From contig JBBDOX010000018.1 of the NCBI GenBank assembly GCA_040876835.1, positions 82,396 to 146,395 of the forward strand: a stretch of 64,000 bases of DNA. Direction: 5' to 3'. The notes under the pieces are model-generated. The model did no database searches. It had not been told where the DNA came from and was given only the letters and a program-made list of their open reading frames with translations. Shown piece after piece: positions 10,851 to 34,873 of the stretch. Position numbers and translations under genes: made by a program. This stretch comes from Candidatus Anderseniibacteriota bacterium. GTDB taxonomy: Bacteria > Patescibacteriota > Andersenbacteria > UBA10190. Each line of letters opens with the position of its first letter. Positions within the stretch are counted from its first letter, which is position 1.

Positions 10851-11411
10851 TTAATCTAGCCTCTTTATATACTCTCCAAACTTTCGAAACGATTCTCCGC
10901 GTTGAGACAGCGCGCTCTTCTCCTCCGCAGTCATATCTGAAATTGTTTTTGCTTGGCCTTCATAAATGAAAATTTTGTCATATGGCATCACGTCTGCCTC
11001 CGGATTGTGAACTTCCTCCGTTATTGATCCTCGCATAATTCCTTCGAATAGCTGCGGCTCCTGTCCTGGCTCTGCATATCCCACCACAGTTCGAAAGTAT
11101 GCTTTTCGACTTTCTCCTTCTAACAATTTTAGAATTCCTTTGAAGCCAAGCGTATTCATCACGAATTTTGGTAGCGCGCCAGGAAATCCTTCATATGCTT
11201 CGAAGAATAGCCCCGTATCCTCTACGACCACTGGCGCATTGATCTCTTTGAGCATTTGCAATGCACCGCTGCGAGCCACTTCATCAATGCTCGCATCATG
11301 ATTTTCCTCATACGATCGATCTAGTTGCTCCAGTTCAATGGGGTAATCTTTGAGAATGTCCTGCACCTCCTGAAATTTGTGCTTGTTTGTAGTAACAAAA
11401 TATATTTTCAT
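10851..11411 (-). CDS. rdgB: Non-canonical purine NTP pyrophosphatase (RdgB/Ham1 ITPase family).
   Basis: N-terminus MKIYFVTTNKHKFQEV and Ham1 family architecture, 186 aa. Confidence 0.85.
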   Translation of the reverse strand: MKIYFVTTNKHKFQEVQDILKDYPIELEQLDRSYEENHDASIDEVARSGALQMLKEINAPVVVEDTGLFFEAYEGFPGALPKFVMNTLGFKGILKLLEGESRKAYFRTVVGYAEPGQEPQLFEGIMRGSITEEVHNPEADVMPYDKIFIYEGQAKTISDMTAEEKSALSQRGESFRKFGEYIKRLD

Positions 11412-12869: not shown

Positions 12870-13283
12870 TTACTGTATTTTTGAAAGGTCGCCGTGGATA
12901 ACTACTGGTTTCATCGCCTCCATTTCAGTTTTGTAATACGGCATATCGGGTATGGGATTGTAGAGAAATATTTTCTGGTTTAACACATGGGCAAAGCCCA
13001 TTTCCAAAAAGGTATTACCGCCTATATAGTTTTCAACACCGTGTTTATCAACATTTAGCACGAGTACCGCTTCTGCATCCTGCATCAGCCGCCACATTTC
13101 ACGAATAGCGTCCAGGTTATTTTTTTGATCAATCTTTATCTTCTCTTTTTCTTCGTCTGATTTGCCGATAAAGGGCGTGTGCAGATCGGTTACGAACGCG
13201 TCATGCCCCATAGTGCGCAGCTGATCGCGTACTTCGAGCATGTTCTCCGTAAATTGCATCGATCCAAGAATGCCGATTTTCAT
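12870..13283 (-). CDS. Nucleoside 2-deoxyribosyltransferase-like (NDT/DNPH1-like) protein.
   Basis: ...NYIGGNTFLEMGFAHVLNQKIFL matches the G-x-T-x-x-E-x-G-(Y/F)-A catalytic-Glu motif of the NDT/Rcl family. 137 aa. Confidence 0.55.
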   Translation of the reverse strand: MKIGILGSMQFTENMLEVRDQLRTMGHDAFVTDLHTPFIGKSDEEKEKIKIDQKNNLDAIREMWRLMQDAEAVLVLNVDKHGVENYIGGNTFLEMGFAHVLNQKIFLYNPIPDMPYYKTEMEAMKPVVIHGDLSKIQ

Positions 13284-13405: not shown

Positions 13406-13711
13406 CTACAAATGATCTTTCCACTTACTGACAAACGCTTCTTCTAAATCTATATCAAGCGTATCGGCAAGTATCATAGCCATACCTGCAACATCAGCTA
13501 GTTCTTTAGCCAATTTTTCTTTTGATTCTTCTTCTGATACCCGCTTTACTTTTCGGCTCTTGCCCTGATGGATTAACAGCGCCTGAAACAACTCTCCAAC
13601 TTCTTCACCAAGTTTTAAAGCTGAAAAGTCGGTATCGATAATAATATCGTGAAGCTTGCTATATCCTTTCGCATCTTCTATTACCCGATCTGCTATTTCT
13701 TTGAATTCCAT
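13406..13711 (-). CDS. MazG-like nucleotide pyrophosphohydrolase.
   Basis: LKLGEEVGELFQAL and ELADVAGMAMILAD, the EExxE/MazG helical motifs. 101 aa. Confidence 0.7.
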   Translation of the reverse strand: MEFKEIADRVIEDAKGYSKLHDIIIDTDFSALKLGEEVGELFQALLIHQGKSRKVKRVSEEESKEKLAKELADVAGMAMILADTLDIDLEEAFVSKWKDHL

Positions 13712-13773: not shown

Positions 13774-14364
13774 TTATACTAATAAACTAAATCCCCACTT
13801 CTGCGTAATCGTGTTCAGGCGACACAGAGGCAGCCCCATAAGCGCCGTTACGTCTCCCTCTATGCGTTCAATAATGACCGCTCCTTTGCCTTGAGCAGCG
13901 AAAGCGCCCGCGTGTCCTGCGAGGGGCTCCCCGGAAGCAATGTATGTGTCAATTTCACTATCGCTTAACTCCTTTATATGCACCGCAACCTCTTCGGTGT
14001 CAGTAATCTCTTCCCCAGTTGCGGAGTTAATAACCGTAAAACCTGTAAGAAAGATAAATTTTGCTCCACTTAACCTCTTAAGCATTGCTCGAGCCTCTGC
14101 CTCATCCTTCGGTTTTCCCAAAGCTTTGCCCTTTAGAACCGCAACCGAGTCGGCTCCGACAATAATAGCGCCAGGACGATGCTTGGTTACTGCCTGAGCT
14201 TTGCCCTGCGAAAACTCCTTTACCATTTCATGTGGTTCTAAAGGAAGTGTCATGTCCTCTTCGTAGTCGCTGGGCACTACTTCAAACTGCACTCCCGCTC
14301 GCTCTAGTAAAGTACGGCGACTTCGAGAGGTAGAGGCTAAAATGAGTTTTTTGGTATTGTCCAT
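13774..14364 (-). CDS. maf: Maf-like nucleoside triphosphate pyrophosphatase.
   Basis: N-terminus LILASTSRSRRTLL, plus ...GADSVAV and ...GLPL motifs typical of Maf/YhdE. Confidence 0.85.
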   Translation of the reverse strand: MDNTKKLILASTSRSRRTLLERAGVQFEVVPSDYEEDMTLPLEPHEMVKEFSQGKAQAVTKHRPGAIIVGADSVAVLKGKALGKPKDEAEARAMLKRLSGAKFIFLTGFTVINSATGEEITDTEEVAVHIKELSDSEIDTYIASGEPLAGHAGAFAAQGKGAVIIERIEGDVTALMGLPLCRLNTITQKWGFSLLV

Positions 14365-14445
14365 ATATCTCCCTCAGCATAGACCAGGTATCAGAAAAGA
14401 AAAACGAACCTCGACATATTCCTAATGCGAGATTCGCTGGGAGAA

Positions 14446-14847
14446 TTAGTGTCGCCGGGCAAAGATGCGGGGAACGTTCTCGGGAAGAGGCACCGTACCA
14501 GCAAGATGTATGCCGTCATGTTTTCCTCCCGCCAGCGGACACCAAATTGTCTGGCTGTAGTCGCACCTGAATGGGTTACGATGCAGATCCAGCACGAAGG
14601 GAAAGAGACGTTCGGGACATCGACTTTCCATAGAAGCCAGATCCTGCGTCCACCAGATTGCGGTGGAGTCCCGAAGCCAGAGCTCACGGAAGCAATGGAA
14701 TCTTTCGTTGAGATCCCCGTACTCACAAGTCACCTTCTCGATAAAGCCGTTGATCAAACTCTTTGTTTGACCGAAGGTGAAAATCTCCACCCAACAACCT
14801 CTCCACTCCATCTCCATCACCTCAGTCCACGTGAGAAAGCGGATCAT
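14446..14847 (-). CDS. Hypothetical protein (133 aa, Trp/Cys/His-rich) in a GC-rich segment.
   Basis: Protein-like composition with an AAGGAAAGG ribosome-binding site upstream. It is co-directional with its neighbours. The overlapping plus-strand ORF looks non-protein-like. Confidence 0.4.
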   Translation of the reverse strand: MIRFLTWTEVMEMEWRGCWVEIFTFGQTKSLINGFIEKVTCEYGDLNERFHCFRELWLRDSTAIWWTQDLASMESRCPERLFPFVLDLHRNPFRCDYSQTIWCPLAGGKHDGIHLAGTVPLPENVPRIFARRH

Positions 14848-14944
14848 GCGGTTGCCTTTCCTTTGAGATCAAAGAGCTCGAACTTTTTGGTTGTACCACA
14901 AGGCATGGTGCCTGCAAAGACGTCCCCTCACTATTACTTCGCTA

Positions 14945-15337
14945 TCACCTGAGGCCTTTCAGGCCAGGTACAATATCTTGTATGTCTTTATATTCAATTA
15001 CTCCTTCGGCAACTCCCCGAACACTATCTTTGATTACTGTTCCTTCTTTTGCAATAAGGATTACTTTCTTACGCATTGCGTAGGCCATACCAGCTTCCAC
15101 TGCCCTGCCCGTTGGCTTATCCGTCATATCAAGGAGCAGATAATCAGACTTTTGTATCTCCTGGGCCGTGCGTTTCATTAATTCGTGAGCATCATTAAAC
15201 ACTTTCTCGTAGTGCTCCACATCACGAATAAAGCAAAAATCTTCGAATCCCGCCTCTTTTACCAATGAACAAAGGTGTTCAATTTCGTCCTTATTCTTAC
15301 CGTGCTCAAACGAAGCAGTAATAAATACTCTGGGCAT
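14945..15337 (-). CDS. NDT/DNPH1-like protein, paralog A.
   Basis: ...LLLDMTDKPTGRAVEAGMAYAMRKKVILI matches the NDT catalytic motif. It is about 80% identical at the amino-acid level to 22498-22893. The likely start is MPRVFITAS. Confidence 0.65.
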   Translation of the reverse strand: MPRVFITASFEHGKNKDEIEHLCSLVKEAGFEDFCFIRDVEHYEKVFNDAHELMKRTAQEIQKSDYLLLDMTDKPTGRAVEAGMAYAMRKKVILIAKEGTVIKDSVRGVAEGVIEYKDIQDIVPGLKGLR

Positions 15338-15342
15338 AATTA

Positions 15343-15798
15343 TCAATCCCAAAAATTGCAGTTAGTCTTATATGCTTCAATATATCTTGCTGTAGGTGCG
15401 AAAAGTGGTTGCGGAAGATTATCGAGATCGTACCAGTCCCAATTTTCACGCTTGTGAGGTTCGAGATTCTGCGGTTCTCCGCGTTCCCATTCTGCCAGTA
15501 AACCAATATCAATATAATGTTTGGGTGCGTATTTTGTTACGTTGCTGACGCATAGGAACCGAATATTTTTTATTGTAATTCCCGCTTCTTCCAGAGTCTC
15601 TCTTCGCGCAGTTTCGAAAAGAGATTCGAGTAACTCGACGTGGCCTCCGGTATTGGCGTACTCCCCTTCACCATGGGCGTTTTTACGCTTCCCAAGCAGT
15701 ACTTTATTTTCTTTTAATATCATTACTCCAACACCTACTTTTGGGTACGCAGCAGGTACTTCCTGGATGGCTACGCTACTAATGGGCTGGGTTTTCAC
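15343..15798 (-). CDS. NUDIX hydrolase, paralog A.
   Basis: Nudix box GGHVELLESLFETARRETLEEAGI. Paralogous to 22895-23359. Confidence 0.8.
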   Translation of the reverse strand: MKTQPISSVAIQEVPAAYPKVGVGVMILKENKVLLGKRKNAHGEGEYANTGGHVELLESLFETARRETLEEAGITIKNIRFLCVSNVTKYAPKHYIDIGLLAEWERGEPQNLEPHKRENWDWYDLDNLPQPLFAPTARYIEAYKTNCNFWD

Positions 15799-16511: not shown

Positions 16512-16793
16512 TCACGAAGGATCTGGCGATTCGGCTGACTCAGTGGTGATAGTGATCTGCTTTTTGAAGAACCAACAGTGGATACCGTAGATCCAGTTCA
16601 CCATGTACAGAAAGTTGAGGAAAAAGAGGCCCCACTGTTCATGGACGTAAGTCGTAATGAGCCAAAAGGGAGCACCAATGAGCCCAAGAACGAATCCCCA
16701 GCGGTTCTTACGTGCGAGCAAAAAGAGAGCCGGAAGACCAGTCAGCAGAATTACGACCTGTGAGATGTTGTCCCACACTGCTTTTCTCCGCAA
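16512..16793 (-). pseudogene. pnuC: Truncated PnuC-like nicotinamide riboside transporter. Only the N-terminal roughly 90 aa (3 transmembrane helices) is present.
   Basis: Trp-rich helices ...WGFVLGLIGAPFWLITTY...FLNFLYMVNWIYGIHCW resemble the PnuC N-terminus. The ORF stops after 93 aa where the GC-rich segment begins. Confidence 0.4.
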
Positions 16794-16888: not shown

Positions 16889-18196
16889 ATGCAGGACTTT
16901 TTCAGACGGGTTATACCAGCTGGAAGCGCTATCTTGATGGCAACAACCCTGGGGTCATACATTGTTGGCCTGTTGCGCGATCGTATCTTCGCCCAGACGT
17001 ATGGCTTATCCTCGCAGCTCGATGCCTACAACGCCGCATTTTTACTGCCTGACTTTTTCTTTAATCTGCTAGTCGCTAGTGGAATTGCGGCCGCAGTTGT
17101 TCCTCTGTTTTCTGATCTCAAACAGCAGGACAAAAAAGATGCCTACGGATACCTCAACTCAATTATAAGTGCTTCAATGCTGCTAATGGTGGGCGTTAGT
17201 TTGCTCCTAGTTATATTTGCTGGTCCTGCGGCTGCGCTAGTAGCGCCTGGGCTTTCAGCTGACGACCAGCAACTCACAACCCGTCTTATTCGCCTCCTGG
17301 CCCTTTCTCCAATTCTCTTTGCCGCCTCTAACGCTCTGGGCGCAGCTTTAATTACCGAAAAACGATTTCTCTTTTATGGCCTGTCTCCCATTTTTTATAA
17401 CATAGGTATTATCGGAGGCACGCTCTACTTAGCCCCTAGCTTTGGAGTTGTGGGCACGGCCATAGGAACTATCATCGGCGCCATCCTCCATGCCGTGGTT
17501 CGCGGCATTGACGCCTGGCGATCTGGATGGCGGCCAGCGTTTTCCGCACAATGGAACACAAAAGAATTTCGCACCACTGTCAGACTCATGATTCCAAAGA
17601 TGGTGGGACACCCTATAGAGCTAGTAACTTTTTGGATGTTTACTGCTATTGCCTCGACACTAACAGCTGGATCAATTAGCGCCCTTAATTTCGCCCGTAA
17701 CTTTCAAAGTGTGCCAGTCAGCATTATTGGTATTTCTATATCTACAGCTGTTTTCCCTGTATTAGCTAATGCCATGTCACGTAAATCACCCCAGGAATAC
17801 CACCGTACGCTGTGGCAAACCCTCAGCATTATTCTTGGCTTAAGCACGCTTGCTGCCATGGCCTTATACGTAATTCGTGAGCCGCTGGTTAGTATCCTGC
17901 TTGGCGGTGGAGAATTTGGCAGTGAGGATGCAGCTCGTACCGCTGGGATATTAGGTGCTTTTTGTCTGGCAGTTCCCACAGAATCTACCAGCCATCTTCT
18001 AGCACGAGCGTTTTATGCTAAAAAAAATACATTGACTCCAGTTGTGTTTAGCGTCATATCTCTTGCCATTGCAGTTGGCTCTGCTTTGCTAATGTTGCCC
18101 GCCCTACAGCTCTACGCCCTTCCAATTGGATTTTTCCTGGGTAGCTTAACGAAAGTAACCGGATTAACCATCGTCAGCTATCGACAACGAGCTTAG
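16889..18196 (+). CDS. murJ: Lipid II flippase MurJ (MviN family).
   Basis: N-terminal signature ...GLLRDRIFAQTYGLSSQLDAYNAAFLLPDFFFNLL..., about 12 transmembrane helices, 435 aa. Confidence 0.8.
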   Translation: MQDFFRRVIPAGSAILMATTLGSYIVGLLRDRIFAQTYGLSSQLDAYNAAFLLPDFFFNLLVASGIAAAVVPLFSDLKQQDKKDAYGYLNSIISASMLLMVGVSLLLVIFAGPAAALVAPGLSADDQQLTTRLIRLLALSPILFAASNALGAALITEKRFLFYGLSPIFYNIGIIGGTLYLAPSFGVVGTAIGTIIGAILHAVVRGIDAWRSGWRPAFSAQWNTKEFRTTVRLMIPKMVGHPIELVTFWMFTAIASTLTAGSISALNFARNFQSVPVSIIGISISTAVFPVLANAMSRKSPQEYHRTLWQTLSIILGLSTLAAMALYVIREPLVSILLGGGEFGSEDAARTAGILGAFCLAVPTESTSHLLARAFYAKKNTLTPVVFSVISLAIAVGSALLMLPALQLYALPIGFFLGSLTKVTGLTIVSYRQRA

Positions 18197-18975
18197 CCGA
18201 TAATAATGACGGCTTTGCGCCCGGCTGTAATGTTTTCATCTTCTCGCCAGTCGTGCATGGCGTTCATTAAAACAATTTCGTCGTAAATAAAGTCGGCTCC
18301 GCGACGCGTGCCCGGATCGTTCACAATAAACTTACCGTCGGACGTGTATCCCTTTACTACTATCATGTGATACAGCGGTCCCGGCTGTTGAAAGTACGGA
18401 TTGCCAAGCAGGCGCCCAGCAGCAGGAACGATAACCGGTTTGCCACTGGCGACGGCCTGACGAATCTGATCAGCCGTCGGGTTCTCGATGATACTAACGT
18501 TTGGGTATTCAAAGTAATCCGTAACAATGGCCGCTGTTTGCACAACATTCGTATCCTGATACTCACCAAATACCCGCTCCTCAAACTCCATTATTTTCAG
18601 CATGTCAGCTTCGGCCTGGTTGGGCCCTCCTATTGGCTGTTTTTGCAGATATCGCATCGCCATTAACACCGAAGCTTCTTCACAAAATTCCTTGTACGGC
18701 AACTCCCAGTTAGCACTTGGAGCCTGGGCCGTAAAGGGAATAGCCAGATTAGCTTCAGCTGGCAGGTCTGTCACGGCAACTTCAGCTGTAGAGGTATCGT
18801 CAGAAGAAGCTGGAAGAGATCCGCTTGATATATCTGTATATTCCTGGGCCTCCGGAAGCTGGGCCCGTTCAATGCCACGCTGCAGATCAAAGCGGTATTG
18901 CCATACAAAAACGCCGGCGGCGATTATTACGGCAGCTAGCACTCCGGTTATGATACCCGCTCTGCGCATACTCAT
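18193..18975 (-). CDS. Peptidase C39-like domain protein (secreted or membrane-anchored).
   Basis: N-terminal transmembrane helix. The ...FCEEASVLMAMRYL segment resembles the Cys-containing C39_2 region. The start at 18975 is preferred and abuts the upstream paralog. Confidence 0.55.
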   Translation of the reverse strand: MSMRRAGIITGVLAAVIIAAGVFVWQYRFDLQRGIERAQLPEAQEYTDISSGSLPASSDDTSTAEVAVTDLPAEANLAIPFTAQAPSANWELPYKEFCEEASVLMAMRYLQKQPIGGPNQAEADMLKIMEFEERVFGEYQDTNVVQTAAIVTDYFEYPNVSIIENPTADQIRQAVASGKPVIVPAAGRLLGNPYFQQPGPLYHMIVVKGYTSDGKFIVNDPGTRRGADFIYDEIVLMNAMHDWREDENITAGRKAVIIIG

Positions 18976-18977
18976 AT

Positions 18978-19808
18978 CTACAAAATATCGGTACCGGCGG
19001 TATATCTCAAGAGCTCTTCGTTCGTTACGGCCTGGATTGCCTGCGAGGCACCTCCACGGCGCTCGAATATGTCCCAGGTTGTGACCCACTGTCGCGTGTT
19101 TGTGCTTATATCAACTTCCCAGACCCTAATATCGCCTATTGCTCGAACCCACGTACGTGGCGGCATTACTACTACGGCGTGGTGATTGAGCGCACTCCAG
19201 TTATGCATAAATTCTTCCGTAGACCAGGACATGTGTCCATCTATGGGATCGATTAAGTAAAAGTGGGTGGGATTATCTGCAGTACCATCAAATCCATACA
19301 GGATACGAGTATGTTCACCGTTTACTGCTTTTATATTCTCTCCGGAAGGTGTCCTCCAGCTATGTACTGCACGCCGGCCGTAATATCCCCAAACAATTAC
19401 AGGGTTGCCAGAATCAATATGGCGGGCGACTTCGCTGGCTGATCCGTGTTTTATAACATGGGTGGGAGCGTAATCATTACCAACCTTAGCAATTGGATCC
19501 CAGTACACGCCATACCCGGTACCTAACATGGTTCCGTTAATAATACCTACAAACCCTTCATTCGGGTTGCCCCACACGCCTACTCCTTTCGGTGTCGGAT
19601 CAAATGGCAGTTTGGCAATCAATTCGCTTTCCGGTACGTCAACACCGTGGGCACCAAGTGCCATTTTGAGAGTTGCGATCTCGCAGCTTAATGAATGTTC
19701 CTGGCGGTGGAATGAAACCGGTAGGCGCACGGCGGCATCGGCAGCCAGCGGTGGCATGAGAAGGATACTGAGTGTGCCTAGAGCTGCACCGAGATGCCGA
19801 AAGACCAT
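18978..19808 (-). CDS. Peptidase C39-like domain protein with a signal peptide.
   Basis: Signal peptide followed by ...VSFHRQEHSLSCEIATLKMALGAHG, the Peptidase_C39_2-like catalytic Cys context. Confidence 0.6.
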   Translation of the reverse strand: MVFRHLGAALGTLSILLMPPLAADAAVRLPVSFHRQEHSLSCEIATLKMALGAHGVDVPESELIAKLPFDPTPKGVGVWGNPNEGFVGIINGTMLGTGYGVYWDPIAKVGNDYAPTHVIKHGSASEVARHIDSGNPVIVWGYYGRRAVHSWRTPSGENIKAVNGEHTRILYGFDGTADNPTHFYLIDPIDGHMSWSTEEFMHNWSALNHHAVVVMPPRTWVRAIGDIRVWEVDISTNTRQWVTTWDIFERRGGASQAIQAVTNEELLRYTAGTDIL

Positions 19809-19851: not shown

Positions 19852-20142
19852 TTAGTTCAGCTTTCGATCGGCTCTATGTTTTTCGTAAGTGAAGTATTGG
19901 ACCAGGGTTATCCCCCACATAATGATCCCGACTGAGAATGAGGCTAATGGTAACCAGGCGCGAGTTAGAATAAAGAAACCAATTGAAGAAGCGTAAAAAC
20001 CAAGTGCTATGAGTATAGTGGTGAGCGGTTGTCCGGACCGCTTTTCCTGATAATTTTTCTTAATCTGGGCCGGGATACCAATAAGCACTAAGGCGAGCGA
20101 AAACAAACTTACGAGAATACTGAGAGTGAATTGAATATCCAT
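19852..20142 (-). CDS. PQ-loop / SemiSWEET-like small membrane protein (3 transmembrane helices).
   Basis: 96 aa. A ...GIPAQIKKNYQEKRSG segment after the first helix resembles the PQ-loop motif. Three hydrophobic helices. Confidence 0.4.
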   Translation of the reverse strand: MDIQFTLSILVSLFSLALVLIGIPAQIKKNYQEKRSGQPLTTILIALGFYASSIGFFILTRAWLPLASFSVGIIMWGITLVQYFTYEKHRADRKLN

Positions 20143-20210: not shown

Positions 20211-22025
20211 TTACCCCTTTCCTGATTTTCCCAACTTGCTCTCTATTTCCGGCATAATAATCTGTGATGGTTTTCTTTCAGGAATCTGGATGTTGTTCCT
20301 GTTAAACAAACCTATTCGATGAAGCTTGGAGAGTGCTTCTATATTCACTCCGCCAACCATCAGAAGCTTCTCAGCATTTTGCTTTTGCAACGCACGAGTA
20401 ATAAGCGCTTGCTCCATATATACAAGAGGCTGCGTGTTCGTGGCATGAGGTGATGTGTCGGAAAAGGATCCACCGAATCGGAACTGCCTGGCTGAACGAT
20501 CAATGGCAAGTTTCGCTGTTTCCTTATCATCCTTTGCCGGATTTGCCTCTTTTACACTGTCAAAAAACGCTTTCATACATTCCACTAACGTCCCGCCCAA
20601 CATTCTCCGCTGCAGAGCGCGGAGATAATGGACGTCTACCACTCGCTGATGCCCAAAAAGCTCTGCCTGAGTTTCCTCCTCAATTAGCACTGCGCCTGCT
20701 TCTGAATTCACGCTTGATCTATCTAACCCGACGTTTTCTGTAATCGACAACCCCAACCCCTCCTTGTTTTCATTCTGGATTACGTGTGTTATCTCATGAT
20801 CCAGAACAGCCACGGCACCTGTCGGGCTGGTGCTGGCTAGCGCACGATTAAACGCTTCAGGCACCTTAACCACTCCCTGTTGACTTACAACAATCAGACT
20901 TTCTTTGGAGGGGTCAACAACGATCTGCCACAACCCGTCAGGAGCCCGGCCGGCTCTATCAGGACTATATTCTTCGTGCTGGCTTAAAATACCATATTCC
21001 CGTAAGGCCTTTTTTGCCCATCCGATGAACTCTTCAGCCCCTATTTTGATTTCCCGTAACAACTGTGGATCAACATCCTTGAATGTATAGTCCTCCATGG
21101 GCTCGGGATTTTTTATCATTTGCTCTATCTCTTCAATTATTTCCTGCGTTCCTGGATTAACGGGAGAGTAGTCACCTCCGTACATGCGCTCTCCTACACC
21201 CTGCGCGAATTTATCCAACCGACTAGAGGCCCGGTACTGTCGCTCGTCTTCAAAAAGCTTTGGACCGCGAATATTTTTCTCCAATCTTGCGTATATATCC
21301 TGTGACCTTTCCTGCGGGGCTGTCCTGTGCTGCTTTAAGAACACAGCCGTGTTGGCATATTCTCCTACCAGCAGCTCGTTCAACCGCCGCCTGTGTAAAG
21401 TCAGCATAGTTAGTTTTGCCTGCGAGACGTGGTCCTCTTTTCCTATAAACAACTCTTCTTGCTCCTTGTAGTACTGCTTCAGCAGGCGCAATGATTGCAG
21501 TTTATCTGCCAAAACTTCGGGGTTACGAACTATGTTGAGCTTTGTCGGATTCTCAACGTTCTCGAGTGATGCATACCCGTTATTGGCAAACTGCTCAACT
21601 ACAAGCCCTTCAGAATATTGCCTGCTCTTGCCTGAAATTTTTTCCAGCACTTTGGCATCAATCCCCCGGTAGTCAAGGCCACAAAAGTATTCTTCTATAT
21701 CTGTAAGGGAGCGGAACTGTGGCACCTCTGCGCCCAAGGCTTCTGCTAGATAGCTTCTTCCTTCTTCTGTGAGGAAGTACTCTTCGTAAAACTCAGAGGT
21801 ATTTATTCGCATCTTCCATGCATGTTCAATTCCCTTAGCTGTCTCTCCTGATTTTAAAGGCAGGCTCTCACTCCTTGTGAGTTCCTTTTCGTATTCCAAA
21901 ACCTCTTCTCGCTCTTCGGGAGAAAGAATGAATTCCGGGTCTTTGGCTAGAGATTCAACGGTCTGTTGAATGTCCATTCCGGGTCTTAAGGGAAAAGCCT
22001 CTGGTTTAAATGATTCCAGGTTCAT
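20211..22025 (-). CDS. DUF1704 / QEGLA-motif (MATCAP-like) putative zinc metallopeptidase.
   Basis: HEITH (HExxH) is followed by ...NENKEGLGLS, a QEGLA-like segment. 604 aa. Confidence 0.45.
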   Translation of the reverse strand: MNLESFKPEAFPLRPGMDIQQTVESLAKDPEFILSPEEREEVLEYEKELTRSESLPLKSGETAKGIEHAWKMRINTSEFYEEYFLTEEGRSYLAEALGAEVPQFRSLTDIEEYFCGLDYRGIDAKVLEKISGKSRQYSEGLVVEQFANNGYASLENVENPTKLNIVRNPEVLADKLQSLRLLKQYYKEQEELFIGKEDHVSQAKLTMLTLHRRRLNELLVGEYANTAVFLKQHRTAPQERSQDIYARLEKNIRGPKLFEDERQYRASSRLDKFAQGVGERMYGGDYSPVNPGTQEIIEEIEQMIKNPEPMEDYTFKDVDPQLLREIKIGAEEFIGWAKKALREYGILSQHEEYSPDRAGRAPDGLWQIVVDPSKESLIVVSQQGVVKVPEAFNRALASTSPTGAVAVLDHEITHVIQNENKEGLGLSITENVGLDRSSVNSEAGAVLIEEETQAELFGHQRVVDVHYLRALQRRMLGGTLVECMKAFFDSVKEANPAKDDKETAKLAIDRSARQFRFGGSFSDTSPHATNTQPLVYMEQALITRALQKQNAEKLLMVGGVNIEALSKLHRIGLFNRNNIQIPERKPSQIIMPEIESKLGKSGKG

Positions 22026-22040
22026 ACGGTCAAATATACT

Positions 22041-22496
22041 CTACCTGGTAAGACTAGCGCTAACTTTGGCAGAAAGTCGTTCACACAGGGACACAATCTC
22101 CTCTCCTGCCACAGCTTCAGTCTTTGATACGTTTAAAAGTGAGAAAATATTTGCCCCTCGTTTATCCGCCGGCAGGTCTTCGGGTATAGCGACAATATGG
22201 AAATGAATATGGTTACATCCCCCTTTTTCGGCAAACAATACGCTGTATTCTTTTTGACTTTGAAGCTCTTCATGGAGGGCCTTTGCTGTTGCTCCTTGCA
22301 TGATTGCCAGCTCGCTTAACTCCTTAGTTGATAGCTCATGCAGCGCTTCAGCGTGCCGCTTGAGTACTATGACAAGCCAGCCCGGTATAGCTGATGAATT
22401 CACGTGTTCCACTTTCCAGTATGTACCTTCGTAAATAACCGGACCGGGAGTAAGAGATATTTCGCCTTTAAGCGCTTGGCATGATAGACAGTTCAT
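22041..22496 (-). CDS. HIT family nucleotide hydrolase.
   Basis: Histidine triad ...NHIHFHIVA and an N-terminal Cys-x-x-Cys. Confidence 0.8.
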   Translation of the reverse strand: MNCLSCQALKGEISLTPGPVIYEGTYWKVEHVNSSAIPGWLVIVLKRHAEALHELSTKELSELAIMQGATAKALHEELQSQKEYSVLFAEKGGCNHIHFHIVAIPEDLPADKRGANIFSLLNVSKTEAVAGEEIVSLCERLSAKVSASLTR

Positions 22497-22497
22497 A

Positions 22498-22893
22498 CTA
22501 GCTAATAATCGCCGTTAGCCGAGGCACAATATCCTCGATGTTTTTGTATTCAATCACGGTCTCGGAAATACCTCGAACACTGTCCTTAATCTCTGTCCCT
22601 TCTTGAGCGATAAGAATTACCCTTTTCCCCATTGCGTATGCCATGCCCGCTTCAGCCGCTCTGCCTGTTGGTTTATCTGTCATATCTAATAATAGATAAT
22701 CTGATTTTTGTATTTCTTCTGCTGTTCGCTTCATGAGATCATGGGCATCATCAAACACTTTTTCATAGTTTTCTATATCGCGAATAAAGCAGAAATCCTT
22801 AAAACCGGATTCTTTTACTAGCGCACAAAGATACTCAATCTCAGTCTTATTTCTTCCATGTTCAAACGAGGCGGTAATAAATATTCTTGGCAT
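22498..22893 (-). CDS. NDT/DNPH1-like protein, paralog B.
   Basis: ...LLLDMTDKPTGRAAEAGMAYAMGKRVILI. About 80% amino-acid identity to 14945-15337. Confidence 0.65.
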   Translation of the reverse strand: MPRIFITASFEHGRNKTEIEYLCALVKESGFKDFCFIRDIENYEKVFDDAHDLMKRTAEEIQKSDYLLLDMTDKPTGRAAEAGMAYAMGKRVILIAQEGTEIKDSVRGISETVIEYKNIEDIVPRLTAIIS

Positions 22894-22894
22894 A

Positions 22895-23359
22895 CTATTT
22901 ACTATCCCAAAAAGTAGAATTTGTTTTGTATGCCTCTATATACCTTGCCGTTGAAGCAAATAGTGGCTGCGGCAGGTTATCTAGATCATACCAACTCCAC
23001 GCTTCGCGTTTATCAGGCTCAAGTATCTGCGGCTCTCCACTTTCCCATTCAGCTAATAGCCCTATGTCGATGTAATGTTTGGGTGCATATTCAGTGATGT
23101 TACTCAGGCACAAGAAACGAATATTCTTAATTGTAATTCCCGCCTCTTCCATAGTTTCCCGACGAGCAGTTTCAAAAAGTGATTCTAAATGCTCAACGTG
23201 GCCACCAGTATTGGCATATTCCCCCTCACCGTGGGCATTTTTTCGTTTTCCAAGGAGCACTTTGCCATCTTTTAAGATCATCACACCAACACCAACTTTG
23301 GGATACTGCACAGTTACTTCTTTAATTGCGGTTTCACTCATGCCTCTACCCCATCGCAC
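22895..23359 (-). CDS. NUDIX hydrolase, paralog B.
   Basis: Nudix box GGHVEHLESLFETARRETMEEAGI. Confidence 0.8.
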   Translation of the reverse strand: MRWGRGMSETAIKEVTVQYPKVGVGVMILKDGKVLLGKRKNAHGEGEYANTGGHVEHLESLFETARRETMEEAGITIKNIRFLCLSNITEYAPKHYIDIGLLAEWESGEPQILEPDKREAWSWYDLDNLPQPLFASTARYIEAYKTNSTFWDSK

Positions 23360-23756
23360 CTATAATTGCTCCGGCAGCCAATAGTGTTACAAGCATGTTA
23401 CCGGCACCAATCCAGAAGAGTGTCATGCTGCCGCCCCAGATAGCACTGCCGAATTGTACAGGCACTACGAAACCAACCCATGCCAGGAAGGCTGTAGAAA
23501 TTCCGCTACTAACACTCAGGTCTCCTTTTCCTACTACAAACAAGGCTAGAACGTAAAACATGACTAGGCTGGCGATGAGCTGCATGAAATACAGCTTGCC
23601 CATCTTTTTCTTTTCTGCTGCCTGTTTTTCTGGACTCCATTTATTCATTCCTGCAGCTTTCTGAAACGTTTTCCCAAACAAGGGGCCGTACCAGATGCTA
23701 CCTATAACCATAGAGGCTATTGCTGCTGCTATTAACGATATATAACTAACTGGCAT
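23346..23756 (-). CDS. DUF1761 family membrane protein.
   Basis: ...GSIWYGPLFGKTF... start and 4 transmembrane helices. 136 aa. Confidence 0.55.
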   Translation of the reverse strand: MPVSYISLIAAAIASMVIGSIWYGPLFGKTFQKAAGMNKWSPEKQAAEKKKMGKLYFMQLIASLVMFYVLALFVVGKGDLSVSSGISTAFLAWVGFVVPVQFGSAIWGGSMTLFWIGAGNMLVTLLAAGAIIGAMG

Positions 23757-31316: not shown

Positions 31317-31390
31317 TGGCAGGGGTGGAGAGAATCGAACTCCCGCTATCCGCTTTGGAGGCGGATGTCATGCCACTAGACCACACCCCC
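31317..31390 (-). tRNA. tRNA-Trp (anticodon CCA), with CCA encoded.
   Basis: Cloverleaf folds by hand. Anticodon stem TCCGC/GCGGA with loop CTCCAAA, T-arm GGGAG-TTCGATT-CTCTC, acceptor GGGGGTG/CACCCCT with a G1:U72 wobble. Confidence 0.8.
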
Positions 31391-31450
31391 GTATCAATAA
31401 AGACACGGTATCTACCGTGCCCTCATTGTACTGAATTTCGCCTGATTGGC

Positions 31451-31614
31451 TACTTTTTTGCTTTTTCGCCGTGGACAGTATGTTTGCGGCAACTCGGACA
31501 ATGCTTTTGAAGTTCTAGCTTATGTCCGTCCTGGCGGCGCAGATTGCGACCAGTGTGATAGTTGTACGATTTGCAATCCTTGCACTGCAGACGAATGAGG
31601 TTATCTTGGCTCAT
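31451..31614 (-). CDS. rpmG: 50S ribosomal protein L33.
   Basis: 54-aa MSQDNLIRLQCKDCKSYNYHTGRNLRRQDGHKLELQKHCPSCRKHTVHGEKAKK, with the CxxC...CxxC zinc ribbon of L33. It is below the ORF-track size cutoff and lies directly upstream of tRNA-Trp, as in many bacteria. Confidence 0.8.
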
Positions 31615-31676
31615 AGACTAATTTAATGAGTAGGGTAGTACGTAGTTACGTAGATGCCAATATATGGCATAAACAG

Positions 31677-33224
31677 CTATTTGTCCATATCCTGCTTTAG
31701 TATCCACTGCTTCACCGATTCTTCCCACTCGTACAGCCTCTTAGGGGTAGGATCCTGAGTAATTCCTTCAGTACGCTGCCACTGCCCCCCTGCCGCTCTG
31801 TAACGGGCCAGTATTTTCCATTCCGGATGAATAATGTCCGGAACCGCAATGGCCAGACGCTGCGTTTCTTCCTGGGAAAGCACGTCTACAAATACTGTAT
31901 TGGGCTGGTCTGTTATAACAACGCGGAGAGGATTTGCCTGAGGATCAGTGGCAATCTCTACAATGTGTTCGGCCACAAACGCAGTAAGCTCGGCGTCAGA
32001 AAATCCTGATGCCGGTAAAGACTCCTGAGAGTTTGCCGAGCGGATTTTTGACTGAACCAAATGTACGCTGCCGCCAGGCATCGCGAAGGAGCCGATGTTC
32101 TTGGTTAGCCCCACCCGGCTATCGAGAACATGCGCCTGGATTTGTCCGTTCGGCAACTGAAGCAGAAAAGACAGATACTGAGAGCTTGCGGCATGAGAAG
32201 AGAGCAGTACACCAGGGGTCTCTGCTATCTTGCTGTGTGTGCCACTCTGGGTAATCCAGAATGAAAGAGTCTGTTGATGTTGGGTGGCATACAGGAGTGT
32301 GTTGTCATTGATCCACTGCACGTGGACCACCGCCCCTACTACCGGATATTTATCAACTCGTCCGTCGCCGCGGGCAGTCACAAGCTGGGCCGGGGCGATG
32401 TTGCTACTGCTGCTGGCAAACGCCAGAGAGCTACCGTTAGCGCTAATATCCACGATGCCACGAGACACGTCGTCTTTTATATTGTCGAAGTTTAGTTGAG
32501 GAAACTGCGCGGATATTTTGGCCGGGAGTGCCTGTACGGTTACGAATTCAATTTTTTCTTCATCCCCTACCCCACTATCTGCCAGAAACCACAGAGCCGT
32601 ACTCTGACTGTTCCAGCGCGGAGTGGTTATAACATCGGAGGCAGTGATATTTTCAGCGAGCAGTCCTGTGCCGCCATCTTTAGTGTCATACATCCACAGT
32701 TCCGTCTTTTTCGGTTTGGAGTCGGCGTCATCAAGATAATATGCTAAACGCTCACCGCTCGGACTTAAGAAAAGATCGCGCAATTCGACCAGAGAGGTCT
32801 GATCAACAAGCAGCTTTTCTTCACCATTTTTATACACCAGTTGGCGCGCATCTTCCTTCTCACCAGCCCGATAGTGATACCATCCCCTTCCGTCAAACAC
32901 CGCCCCCGCCTCTGCAGTATCAGGAGGGTCAACTGGAATACATTGCGGATTGCAGATATACACCTGACGGCTTCCGTTGCTCTGTACGTGCGCCAGTACC
33001 AGATCCATATCAGGAATGGTCGAAGGAGAGGGGTCTTGAGCCGAGCGCACTTCAGGCTCTGGCTGCGGCTGGCTATCTTGCTGCAGCCACGCCCAAGCAC
33101 CACCAGCTAGAATGGCCAGAAGTACCAGCAGACGCCAGAAAAATCCAAAGGTAAAAAATGTATATCGACGCATACCTGTTGTAGTGTACCAAAGGCTAGC
33201 AGTTGCAGCGATTCGGAAAATCAA
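31677..33224 (-). CDS. Membrane-anchored beta-propeller (TolB/PD40-like) protein.
   Basis: N-terminal transmembrane helix. Repeated ...GERLAYY...DGG... segments resemble PD40/WD40-like blades. Confidence 0.4.
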   Translation of the reverse strand: MIFRIAATASLWYTTTGMRRYTFFTFGFFWRLLVLLAILAGGAWAWLQQDSQPQPEPEVRSAQDPSPSTIPDMDLVLAHVQSNGSRQVYICNPQCIPVDPPDTAEAGAVFDGRGWYHYRAGEKEDARQLVYKNGEEKLLVDQTSLVELRDLFLSPSGERLAYYLDDADSKPKKTELWMYDTKDGGTGLLAENITASDVITTPRWNSQSTALWFLADSGVGDEEKIEFVTVQALPAKISAQFPQLNFDNIKDDVSRGIVDISANGSSLAFASSSSNIAPAQLVTARGDGRVDKYPVVGAVVHVQWINDNTLLYATQHQQTLSFWITQSGTHSKIAETPGVLLSSHAASSQYLSFLLQLPNGQIQAHVLDSRVGLTKNIGSFAMPGGSVHLVQSKIRSANSQESLPASGFSDAELTAFVAEHIVEIATDPQANPLRVVITDQPNTVFVDVLSQEETQRLAIAVPDIIHPEWKILARYRAAGGQWQRTEGITQDPTPKRLYEWEESVKQWILKQDMDK

Positions 33225-33240
33225 TATAGTAAACCCTATT

Positions 33241-33312
33241 GCCGATGTAGCTCAGTGGTAGAGCATTCCCATGGTAAGGGAAAGGCCGCGGGTCCGATTC
33301 CCGCCATCGGCT
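33241..33312 (+). tRNA. tRNA-Thr (anticodon GGU).
   Basis: Acceptor GCCGATG/CATCGGC, D-arm GCTCAGTGGTAGAGC, anticodon loop ATGGTAA. The T-loop reads TCCGATT, with C at position 55. Confidence 0.75.
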
Positions 33313-33563
33313 CATTCAATTAGTGCGAAACGCGAAATCGCCTTTCCGTCTACCTCAACTTTTGCATTCCAATCGCTATACGTTCGCGCCCAGACTGTAT
33401 TGTTATGTTGTGGACTGCGGTAGATAACAAGCGGCTCGAGGGTGTCTTCCTTCACAGCTAAGCCCATTACTTCATATTCTCCGCTTTTGTAGTGCGTATA
33501 CCACTGCCCGACTTTAACTGGGAGTTCAGTAAGCGCTGCTTGAGCTTCATCCTTATCACTCAT
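33312..33563 (-). CDS. DUF1653 family protein.
   Basis: ...YTHYKSGEYEVMGLA...LVIYRS... matches the DUF1653 pattern. 83 aa. Confidence 0.55.
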   Translation of the reverse strand: MSDKDEAQAALTELPVKVGQWYTHYKSGEYEVMGLAVKEDTLEPLVIYRSPQHNNTVWARTYSDWNAKVEVDGKAISRFALIE

Positions 33564-34636
33564 CGCTTCGCCAGAACTTCATCAAGTTCGGCTTTCTTAG
33601 CGGCAATATCAGACTGAGCGAAATGTTCTCGTACCGGAGAGAGAAGTTCAATGAGTTCCTTGGAGACGGTAGATTTTAAATCCATCGGGTGCACGTCTCC
33701 AGCTGCGTAAGCTTTTTCCAGCTCCTCATAGTTAGTGAACTCTACATTGCCGCCATGTTCTTCTTTGCGTTCAATACGAAACGGCTGGCTGCGATTCCAG
33801 AAAAGAATATTCTTAATCCAGTTCAGGATCGGATTATGCTCTGTCTCTTTTTCCGGAGCAAAGGCTTTCTTTATCTTTCGTTCAATGTCAGCTGGATCAT
33901 CATGCACGAAGATAGCTGAGTCAGGATCTGACTTGCTCATCTTATCTTCCTTACTCTTCCCGTTCAGACTTTGAAGGAGTGGGTGGTGGAGGGCAATTGG
34001 TTTTGGCTGGTCGGGTCGAATCTTGTGGGCCACGTCCCTCATTACTACATGAGCTTTGCGCTGATCCATACCAGCGTGGGCGATGTCGATGTTTTGATAG
34101 AAAATGTCAGCAGCTTGCATGGCAGGATACATCGTCCGGGCATAGTCGACGTCTTCCCCGGCGGCTTTACCGGTAATATCAATACTACGCACGATACGAG
34201 CTAGGGTTGTATGCTGTCCGATGCTTACCACGTCCTTCCAGTATTCAGGAAAATCCCTGGCATACCATTCGCTAGCTAGGCGAAACTCAATATCGTCCGG
34301 GTTACCGCCAACGGCTTTGTAGCTCGCTTTCATAGCTTCCGTAAAATACCCCTGGCCGATTCTGGCTGCCGTCTCTTGTCTACCATCCAGTTTGTTATTA
34401 ATTGCAGAGTGCCAGTCAGCCAGCCACACTGTACATTTGACCCCAAGGTCAGTTAAATCCTTCATGACCAATGAAGTCATGATTCCTGTACCTAAATGAA
34501 CATAGCCGGATATCTCGAAACCGATATAATGGGTTAAGGGAGTTCCGGACGCTATTCGCTCCCGTAGATCTTCTTCAGTGATTACTTCAGCAAGATTATT
34601 AGCTAACCGGTTGATAATTTCGTCTTTTTCTGGCAT
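33560..34636 (-). CDS. tyrS: Tyrosyl-tRNA synthetase, archaeal/eukaryotic type.
   Basis: HIGH-like region ...YIGFEISGYVHLGT, KMSKS, and a C-terminal half closely resembling archaeal TyrRS (...KIKKAF-PE...NPILNWIKNILF...FTNYEELEKAYA-G-VHPMDLK...). The start at 34636 avoids overlap with the tRNA-Thr gene. Confidence 0.75.
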   Translation of the reverse strand: MPEKDEIINRLANNLAEVITEEDLRERIASGTPLTHYIGFEISGYVHLGTGIMTSLVMKDLTDLGVKCTVWLADWHSAINNKLDGRQETAARIGQGYFTEAMKASYKAVGGNPDDIEFRLASEWYARDFPEYWKDVVSIGQHTTLARIVRSIDITGKAAGEDVDYARTMYPAMQAADIFYQNIDIAHAGMDQRKAHVVMRDVAHKIRPDQPKPIALHHPLLQSLNGKSKEDKMSKSDPDSAIFVHDDPADIERKIKKAFAPEKETEHNPILNWIKNILFWNRSQPFRIERKEEHGGNVEFTNYEELEKAYAAGDVHPMDLKSTVSKELIELLSPVREHFAQSDIAAKKAELDEVLAKR

Positions 34637-34679
34637 ACAGACATAATATATATGACTGGTGATAAGTGCCAGTTTATAC

Positions 34680-34755
34680 GCCACCTTAGCTCAGCTGGTA
34701 GAGCAACTCACTTGTAATGAGTAGGTCGTCGGTTCGAATCCGACAGGTGGCTCCA
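34680..34755 (+). tRNA. tRNA-Thr (anticodon UGU), with CCA encoded.
   Basis: Acceptor GCCACCT/AGGTGGC, anticodon loop CTTGTAA, T-arm GTCGG-TTCGAAT-CCGAC. Confidence 0.85.
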
Positions 34756-34827
34756 CCGGGGATGGCAGATCGGCTTATGCAGCGGACTGTAAATCCGCGA
34801 AGGTAGGTTCAACTCCTACTCCCCGGA
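34756..34827 (+). tRNA. tRNA-Tyr (anticodon GUA), class-I-like with a 4-nt variable loop and a C1:G72 pair.
   Basis: Acceptor CCGGGGA/TCCCCGG, anticodon stem GCGGA/TCCGC with loop CTGTAAA, T-arm GTAGG-TTCAACT-CCTAC. There is no long variable arm. It abuts the tRNA-Thr gene with no spacer. Confidence 0.7.
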
Positions 34828-34873
34828 CAAAAAATCGCGAGACAGACATTCGCCATTATTATAAAATAGGATC

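Follow-up and report, generated by a model that had tools for sequence, protein, structure and literature searches.

The closest described enzymes fall into two known kinds. One is the superfamily of nucleoside 2'-deoxyribosyltransferases (NDTs) and DNPH1, which carries a conserved Asp on the strand preceding the catalytic Glu (Asp72 in NDT, Asp80 in DNPH1). True NDTs (PF05014), such as those of L. leichmannii, Chroococcidiopsis and Desulfotalea, have acidic residues before the Glu (Asp92 in L. leichmannii NDT) and a conserved C-terminal Tyr. DNPH1 (Rcl), a 2'-deoxynucleoside 5'-phosphate N-hydrolase that acts on 5-hydroxymethyl-dUMP, splits dNMPs into base and deoxyribose 5-phosphate. It has an N-terminal phosphate loop, YFxGSIRGG, and Ser ligands of the 5'-phosphate, placed ahead of the Glu and contributed by the partner subunit. 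The CMP (hydroxymethyl-CMP) N-glycosidases BcmB, MilB and BlsM are encoded in nucleoside-antibiotic biosynthetic clusters and have an Arg/Phe pair for cytosine recognition. The other kind is the NUDX1/NUDT15 clade of Nudix hydrolases, whose substrates include 8-oxo-dGTP, thiopurine dNTPs, NADH and prenyl diphosphates. To our knowledge, none of AtNUDX1, NUDT15 and the Rickettsia protein 4kyx is paired with an NDT-fold gene. Literature searches on NDT/DNPH1/SLOG, Nudix, YtoQ and CPR nucleotide salvage turned up no characterised member of the small-protein family described below, nor its pairing with a Nudix gene.

We analysed a stretch of 64,000 nucleotides (the window) from a 188.5-kb contig in a metagenome-assembled genome of Candidatus Andersenbacteria (CPR/Patescibacteria), a tiny genome with two old copies of a two-gene operon. 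In copy A, a Nudix hydrolase of the NUDX1/NUDT15 type (15343-15798, minus strand, 151 aa, GTG start) is followed by a small protein of the NDT/DNPH1 superfamily (14945-15337, minus strand, 130 aa, ATG start; annotated as hypothetical protein WD200_04800). The TTG at 15352, given as the start of the small gene in the list of open reading frames, is an upstream extension of the ATG at 15337. Copy B, also on the minus strand, comprises a Nudix hydrolase (maximal ORF 22895-23359) and a small protein of 131 aa (22498-22893; hypothetical protein WD200_04845), which matches P0002. The probable start of this second Nudix gene is the ATG at 23341 (148 aa), 4 nt past the stop codon of a DUF1761 gene. 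The junction between the two genes reads GAT TGA-taatt-ATG in copy A (spacer of 5 nt) and TAG-t-ATG in copy B (spacer of 1 nt). The original prediction, made from the sequence of this stretch, described two pairs with the same order and orientation and gaps of 1-5 nt. Both lie on the minus strand where it had placed them, and the Nudix-box and catalytic-Glu motifs that it quoted are both present in the encoded proteins.

Between the two copies, the Nudix proteins share 85% of their residues (E 3e-96) and the small proteins 80% (E 1e-81), and the codon-aligned DNA identity is 72.8% for each of the two genes. By the Nei-Gojobori method, pS is saturated (0.84-0.87) and dN is 0.118 and 0.120 for the two genes, so both copies are old and under strong purifying selection. 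The saturation and the equal dN further imply that the pair was copied long ago as one unit and is not an assembly artefact. The similarity is confined to the two ORFs, the flanks do not align, and the window contains exactly two of each gene. Searches with tblastn found no remnants of the copy-B neighbours (HIT, DUF1761 and others) around copy A, nor the reverse, and the duplication was thus limited to the two genes. The original observation is confirmed. We conclude that the gene pair was duplicated as a unit within an Andersenbacteria (CPR) lineage and that both copies have remained functional. A neighbour-joining tree of the small proteins places A and B as long-branched sisters adjoining the group of the relatives L001 and L161. 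Such a position agrees with a duplication close to the base of this clade, although a tree of only 130 residues is poorly resolved.

The small protein belongs to an uncharacterised branch of the NDT/DNPH1 superfamily that is centred on CPR/DPANN. In sequence it resembles solved or characterised enzymes only weakly (E 0.007-0.4), and NCBIfam has no model for it. The two window proteins score 28.9 (A) and 27.5 bits (B) against PF05014 (Nuc_deoxyrib_tr), for a gathering threshold of 28.8, and many relatives carry a precomputed PF05014 annotation while many do not. An AlphaFold2 model based on 30 homologues has a pLDDT of 84 and a pTM of 0.80. The best 50 Foldseek matches of this model in the PDB are all NDT-superfamily enzymes (flavodoxin-like NDT fold), with BcmB, an engineered phosphodeoxyribosyltransferase, DNPH1 and MilB in the top ranks. 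Glu81, in the motif DMTDKPTGRAxEAG (segment G-x-x-x-E-x-G), aligns with the catalytic Glu of DNPH1, BcmB and NDT and is invariant among 30 CPR/DPANN sequences. In a wider set of 86 representatives sharing 50% identity or less, Glu81 is conserved at 99%, Gly83 at 98%, Gly77 at 94% and Asp65 at 72%, with a further 8% Glu. In the close clade, the conservation of Asp65 reaches 90% or more; the residue aligns with DNPH1 Asp80 (hhalign, with a manually entered human DNPH1 sequence). Taking sequence and model together, we regard superfamily membership and the predicted core catalytic Glu/Asp dyad as established. The original assignment as NDT/DNPH1-like was right at this level of fold and dyad. As to the alternative that it had named, a LOG-type Rossmann protein without the conserved Glu, the small proteins match neither PF03641 nor the PGGxGTxxE motif of LOG proteins, and among LOG/SLOG models the sole SLOG-type match was that of PF18306 to copy B (E 0.11).

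Around this dyad, the putative active site differs from those of the described enzymes. The position of the catalytic Tyr (Tyr7 in NDT, Tyr24 in DNPH1) is occupied by Phe5 in both window proteins, and the column contains F in 53% and Y in 43% of the wider family, the equivalence being taken from a comparison of the xYFxx motif and not from structural superposition. Ahead of the Glu, the loop combines basic residues with a hydroxyl group, through K74, T76 and R78, which do not vary within the CPR clade. K103 aligns with the phosphate-binding Ser region of DNPH1 (LSAMIRG; again with a manually entered DNPH1 sequence), and 62% of the wider family have Ser at this position. K74/T76/R78 and K103 are compatible with phosphate binding and would fit a phosphorylated substrate. 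The clade also has an invariant motif of its own, GFEDFCFIRDVENY, with two invariant Cys, which sits in the least confidently modelled segment. DNPH1 does not have this motif. Conversely, its phosphate loop is absent from the window proteins, which have FITASFEHGKNK (FITASF-HG-NK) in its place, its catalytic Tyr is Phe, and the loop before the Glu is here one residue shorter and basic (K-P-T-G-R). DNPH1 reaches an E-value of only 0.06-0.4 against the small protein, and the hhalign match covers the C-terminal half, residues 57-118 (manually entered DNPH1 sequence). BcmB, MilB and BlsM are 18-22% identical to the small protein; unlike their antibiotic clusters, the window pair lies in a housekeeping context, and we identified no counterpart of their Arg/Phe pair.

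The comparison with NDTs bears on an alternative reading of the pair, in which the small protein would be a genuine nucleoside 2'-deoxyribosyltransferase or a nucleoside hydrolase acting on scavenged deoxynucleosides, with base exchange as in lactobacilli, and the Nudix protein an independent house-cleaner sharing its operon. NDTs match the small protein with an hhalign probability of only 11% (manually entered NDT sequence). Their acidic 5'-OH-binding ligands are replaced by the invariant K74, T76 and R78, and their Tyr7 by Phe. The C-terminus of the small protein is variable and has no conserved Tyr, so the Tyr-carboxylate contact of class I/II NDTs is absent. Finally, Foldseek ranks enzymes with phosphorylated substrates first. 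Both the basic, Thr-containing loop and this ranking speak for a small-protein substrate that carries a phosphate, and we consider the NDT reading unlikely.

The upstream protein is a Nudix hydrolase. Nudix A and B match PF00293 above its gathering threshold of 21.1 bits (63.5 bits, E 2.7e-17, and 64.4 bits, E 1.4e-17, respectively). The Nudix box (G-HVELL-E-SLFETAR-RETLEEAGI; pattern Gx5Ex7REUxEExGU) is complete and can be read directly from the sequence (GHVELLESLFETARRETLEEAGI in copy A). The protein resembles 4kyx (E 9e-33), Arabidopsis AtNUDX1 (E 3e-29) and human NUDT15 (E 9e-20) over its full length. No NCBIfam equivalog matched it at cut-off, and its substrate is therefore not assignable by homology; the substrates of the clade are themselves so diverse that homology does not fix the specificity. 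In another reading, the pair might act on pyridine or ADP-ribose nucleotides: the Nudix enzyme would cut NAD(H) or ADP-ribose to NMN(H) or AMP (plus R5P), and the NDT-fold enzyme would then strip nicotinamide or adenine, as an NMN- or AMP-nucleosidase does. PnuC is a transporter of NMN and nicotinamide riboside, and a 93-aa membrane ORF near copy A (16512-16793, minus strand) matches only the first 70 of the 175 positions of the PnuC model. Against this reading, the NudC model scores 47 bits for a cut-off of 158. Moreover, a divergent gene and terminator-like hairpins stand between the pair and the PnuC-like ORF, which is only 93 aa long and not associated with copy B. We judge the NAD/ADP-ribose reading improbable.

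The pairing of the two genes is restricted to few relatives, examined first in the close clade at 72% identity or more. In another Andersenbacteria genome (L001), a Nudix gene (79-86% identity) lies directly upstream of the small gene, and a single pair was seen. This locus is syntenic with copy B, in the order DUF1761-Nudix-NDT followed by C39-C39-MurJ, and is devoid of the HIT and 604-aa genes of the window. At L161, the Nudix-NDT pair is followed by a homologue (84% conserved) of the 96-aa membrane ORF of the window. At L164 (879-1532), a truncated Nudix gene precedes the small gene and an IS200-type Y1 transposase lies beside the pair. Two further loci (L163 and L023) have only a C-terminal remnant of the Nudix gene, downstream of the small gene and followed by a homologue of the window ORF 12870-13283, and a close-clade locus (L162) has no Nudix gene at the small-gene locus. 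The cassette thus looks unstable in close relatives (L164, L163, L023). Outside the close clade, a Nudix gene of the same type was found upstream only in the distant L070. In the survey of genomic context, the proposed pairing is present in close relatives (L001, L161 and, truncated, L164) and in L070, and the same-type pairing is absent at 78 of the 80 genome loci. The reverse search started from Nudix relatives (27-68% identity) at 80 metagenome loci, and none of these had the small gene within 3 kb. Across the small-protein family, no other immediate neighbour is as common as Nudix genes, which are of mixed subtypes and lie on either side: they account for 10 of the 147 ORFs at positions +/-1, against 2 of the 126 control ORFs at +/-3 (odds ratio 4.5, one-sided Fisher p = 0.03). 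From these neighbourhood counts, the association of the family with Nudix enzymes appears to be real but loose. The tight Nudix-NDT operon is a lineage-specific invention that was later duplicated, an arrangement of known enzyme types and not a new kind of system.

These results must be weighed against the possibility that the adjacency has no pathway meaning, i.e., that unrelated housekeeping genes with separate substrates were juxtaposed in one lineage and co-duplicated. Neither family is paired outside the narrow clade, the enrichment of Nudix neighbours is only about 4.5-fold (p = 0.03), and CPR genomes are tightly packed; small gene B and the HIT gene, too, are linked by a 1-nt TAGtATG junction. 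Yet both genes are intact in both copies, with near-identical divergence and junctions that have stayed tight despite synonymous saturation. Nudix genes are the top neighbour family-wide, and one representative (P0214) is a fusion of an NDT-like domain with a C-terminal Nudix domain. On balance, an incidental adjacency seems rather unlikely to us.

The small-protein family itself is compact, unusually conserved and normally single-copy. A word-indexed search retrieved 289 relatives in many CPR phyla and in DPANN archaea, most of them with 60-80% identity to the query. An exhaustive profile search gave 604 clusters at 50% identity with E <=1e-3, of which 199 had E <=1e-10. Among species-representative genomes, the family was present in 80 different assemblies, with one locus each; the archaeal carriers include Woesearchaeota, Pacearchaeota, Nanohaloarchaea and Nanobdellota. 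CPR and DPANN small proteins in these genomes are 52-64% identical, which is unusually high for lineages so divergent and suggests either inter-domain transfer or extreme constraint. Saccharibacteria-labelled loci have a glucose-6-phosphate dehydrogenase gene after the small gene (5 loci) and the gene of the ribonucleotide reductase small subunit before it (6 loci). Three representatives (P0126, P0129 and P0174) are extended at the C-terminus by about 100 hydrophobic, membrane-like residues. Other NDT-like fusions involve methyltransferase, GNAT, Clp_N, DinB and receiver domains and could be read-through gene calls. Apart from the single Nudix fusion and the three membrane-anchored forms, the fusions were too heterogeneous to serve as functional clues and were set aside.

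Other nucleotide-processing genes surround the two copies. A HIT-family nucleotide hydrolase/transferase (22041-22496, minus strand; PF01230 E 5e-05, HIHFHIV motif) begins 1 nt after small gene B, with the junction TAG-t-ATG, and is likely to belong to the same operon. No HIT counterpart was found downstream of copy A or in the syntenic L001. Directly upstream of Nudix B lies the DUF1761 membrane protein (23346-23756, minus strand; PF08570 E 3e-23), with a 90% identical homologue upstream of the L001 pair. The copy-B array DUF1761-Nudix-NDT-HIT is tightly spaced, and two HAD phosphatases, a histidine phosphatase and P-loop kinases are encoded upstream of it. Downstream of copy A, on the same strand, are a Maf nucleotide pyrophosphatase (13774-14364, minus strand; PF02545 E 5e-53), which is 580 nt away and outside the duplication, a MazG-like pyrophosphohydrolase (13406-13711, minus strand; PF12643 E 8e-05, below the gathering score) and a Ham1/RdgB non-canonical purine NTP pyrophosphatase (10851-11411, minus strand; PF01725 E 4e-40), with an inositol-monophosphatase-family gene and a sigma-70 factor gene in between. 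Nucleoside monophosphates are a product of the Maf, MazG, Ham1, Nudix and HIT families alike. The Ham1/RdgB, MazG-like and Maf genes, the two Nudix genes and the HIT gene form a nucleotide-sanitation neighbourhood of about 16 kb.

Several features of this neighbourhood lie outside the pairs. The 580 nt between small gene A and Maf (14365-14944) have no convincing ORF and no remnant of the HIT gene. Their minus-strand RNA folds better than shuffled sequences (z = -2.47; 1 of 100 shuffles as good). Neither this segment nor the region at 15.8-16.9 kb had an Rfam match at E <=1, and promoter and terminator scans around copy A gave results no better than shuffles. The segment may be what is left of a gene, or an RNA not yet recognised as such. 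Between the HIT gene and the 96-aa membrane ORF (19852-20142, minus strand; no Pfam match), whose L161 homologue directly follows the Nudix-NDT pair, lies a 604-aa ORF with a HEITH (HExxH) motif (20211-22025, minus strand) and no match in Pfam, NCBIfam or PADLOC. This ORF is missing from the syntenic L001 and so may be an insertion in this genome. Two adjoining C39-like peptidase paralogues of 298 and 276 aa (18193-19808, minus strand; maximal ORFs overlapping by about 110 nt) are 88-93% conserved in L001, beside MurJ. Further away, four tRNA genes (Trp-CCA, Thr-GGT, Thr-TGT and Tyr-GTA) occupy 31317-34828, with Thr-TGT (34680-34755) and Tyr-GTA (34756-34828) directly adjacent.

A two-step breakdown of dNTPs could also deplete nucleotides upon infection (dNTP to dNMP to base + dR5P), which would make the cassette an anti-phage module. 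There are weak PADLOC matches of the Nudix protein to PDC-S07 (E 3e-08) and of HIT to ThsC (E 1e-03), and the L164 pair adjoins a Y1 transposase. PADLOC gave no match for the small protein, the neighbours MurJ, Maf and Ham1 are housekeeping genes, and the family is single-copy and highly conserved across 80 assemblies, unlike patchy defence genes. With nothing in PADLOC for the small protein and only generic, weak matches for Nudix and HIT, we rejected defence as the main explanation and consider it highly improbable.

The reading that we favour, tentatively and with slightly less than even confidence, is that the duplicated operon has a house-cleaning or recycling role, by analogy with the described enzymes: a Nudix (d)NTP pyrophosphohydrolase would feed a (d)NMP N-glycosidase of the NDT/DNPH1 branch. 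The Nudix enzyme would convert non-canonical or surplus (d)NTPs into (d)NMP and PPi. The small enzyme would then cleave the N-glycosidic bond of the (d)NMP, with Glu81 as nucleophile and Asp65 as acid, as in DNPH1, MilB and BcmB, and release the base and (deoxy)ribose 5-phosphate. The damaged nucleotide would thereby be barred from re-phosphorylation, and the sugar-phosphate and base would be recycled by the scavenging organism. This explanation best accounts for the equal divergence of both genes, the 1-5 nt junctions in both copies and the recurrence of the pair in L001, L161, L164 and L070. It also accounts for Nudix being the top neighbour family-wide, for the P0214 fusion and for the NMP-yielding Maf, MazG-like, Ham1 and HIT genes alongside. 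The data establish the gene structure, the duplication, the purifying selection, the family and fold of the proteins, the conserved Glu/Asp and how far the pairing extends among relatives; the substrates, the link between the two steps and a hydrolytic instead of a transferase reaction are inferred. The route from (d)NTP through (d)NMP to base and sugar-phosphate, which the original prediction had proposed in outline, is plausible and partly supported, its support being limited to synteny within a restricted lineage, a modest excess of Nudix neighbours and a single fusion.

Both enzymes are of known kinds, and public annotation already assigns the small protein to PF05014. What is new is a CPR/DPANN subfamily that is uncharacterised, together with an operon that was duplicated locally. 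If the adjacency were incidental, the finding would be ordinary. A broader version of the favoured reading, more doubtful than probable but credible, is that the 130-aa protein is a CPR/DPANN-wide nucleotide N-glycosidase, exceptionally conserved between bacteria and archaea (57-65% identity), with an atypical site (Phe for Tyr, the K-P-T-G-R loop and GFEDFCFIRDVENY with its two Cys), freeing base and (deoxy)ribose 5-phosphate from scavenged or damaged (d)NMPs, and that it was coupled to a Nudix enzyme in Andersenbacteria and duplicated for two substrate classes. That a reduced genome has retained two copies so diverged suggests two specificities, and the locus thus offers itself as a natural experiment in which substrates could conveniently be mapped. 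Neither CPR bacteria nor DPANN archaea can synthesise nucleotides de novo; they live on scavenged nucleotides, so nucleotide sanitation and breakdown are central to their biology. The small protein is annotated as 'hypothetical' or as a generic 'NDT', yet is among the more conserved small enzymes common to both groups. If it is a (d)NMP N-glycosidase acting behind Nudix, Maf, MazG, Ham1 and HIT enzymes, it would mark where a house-cleaning route ends and would supply (deoxy)ribose phosphate. The broader version, if true, would provide a prokaryotic counterpart of the NUDT/DNPH1 sanitation axis in ultra-small symbionts, and a missing link between their nucleotide scavenging and their pentose-phosphate metabolism.
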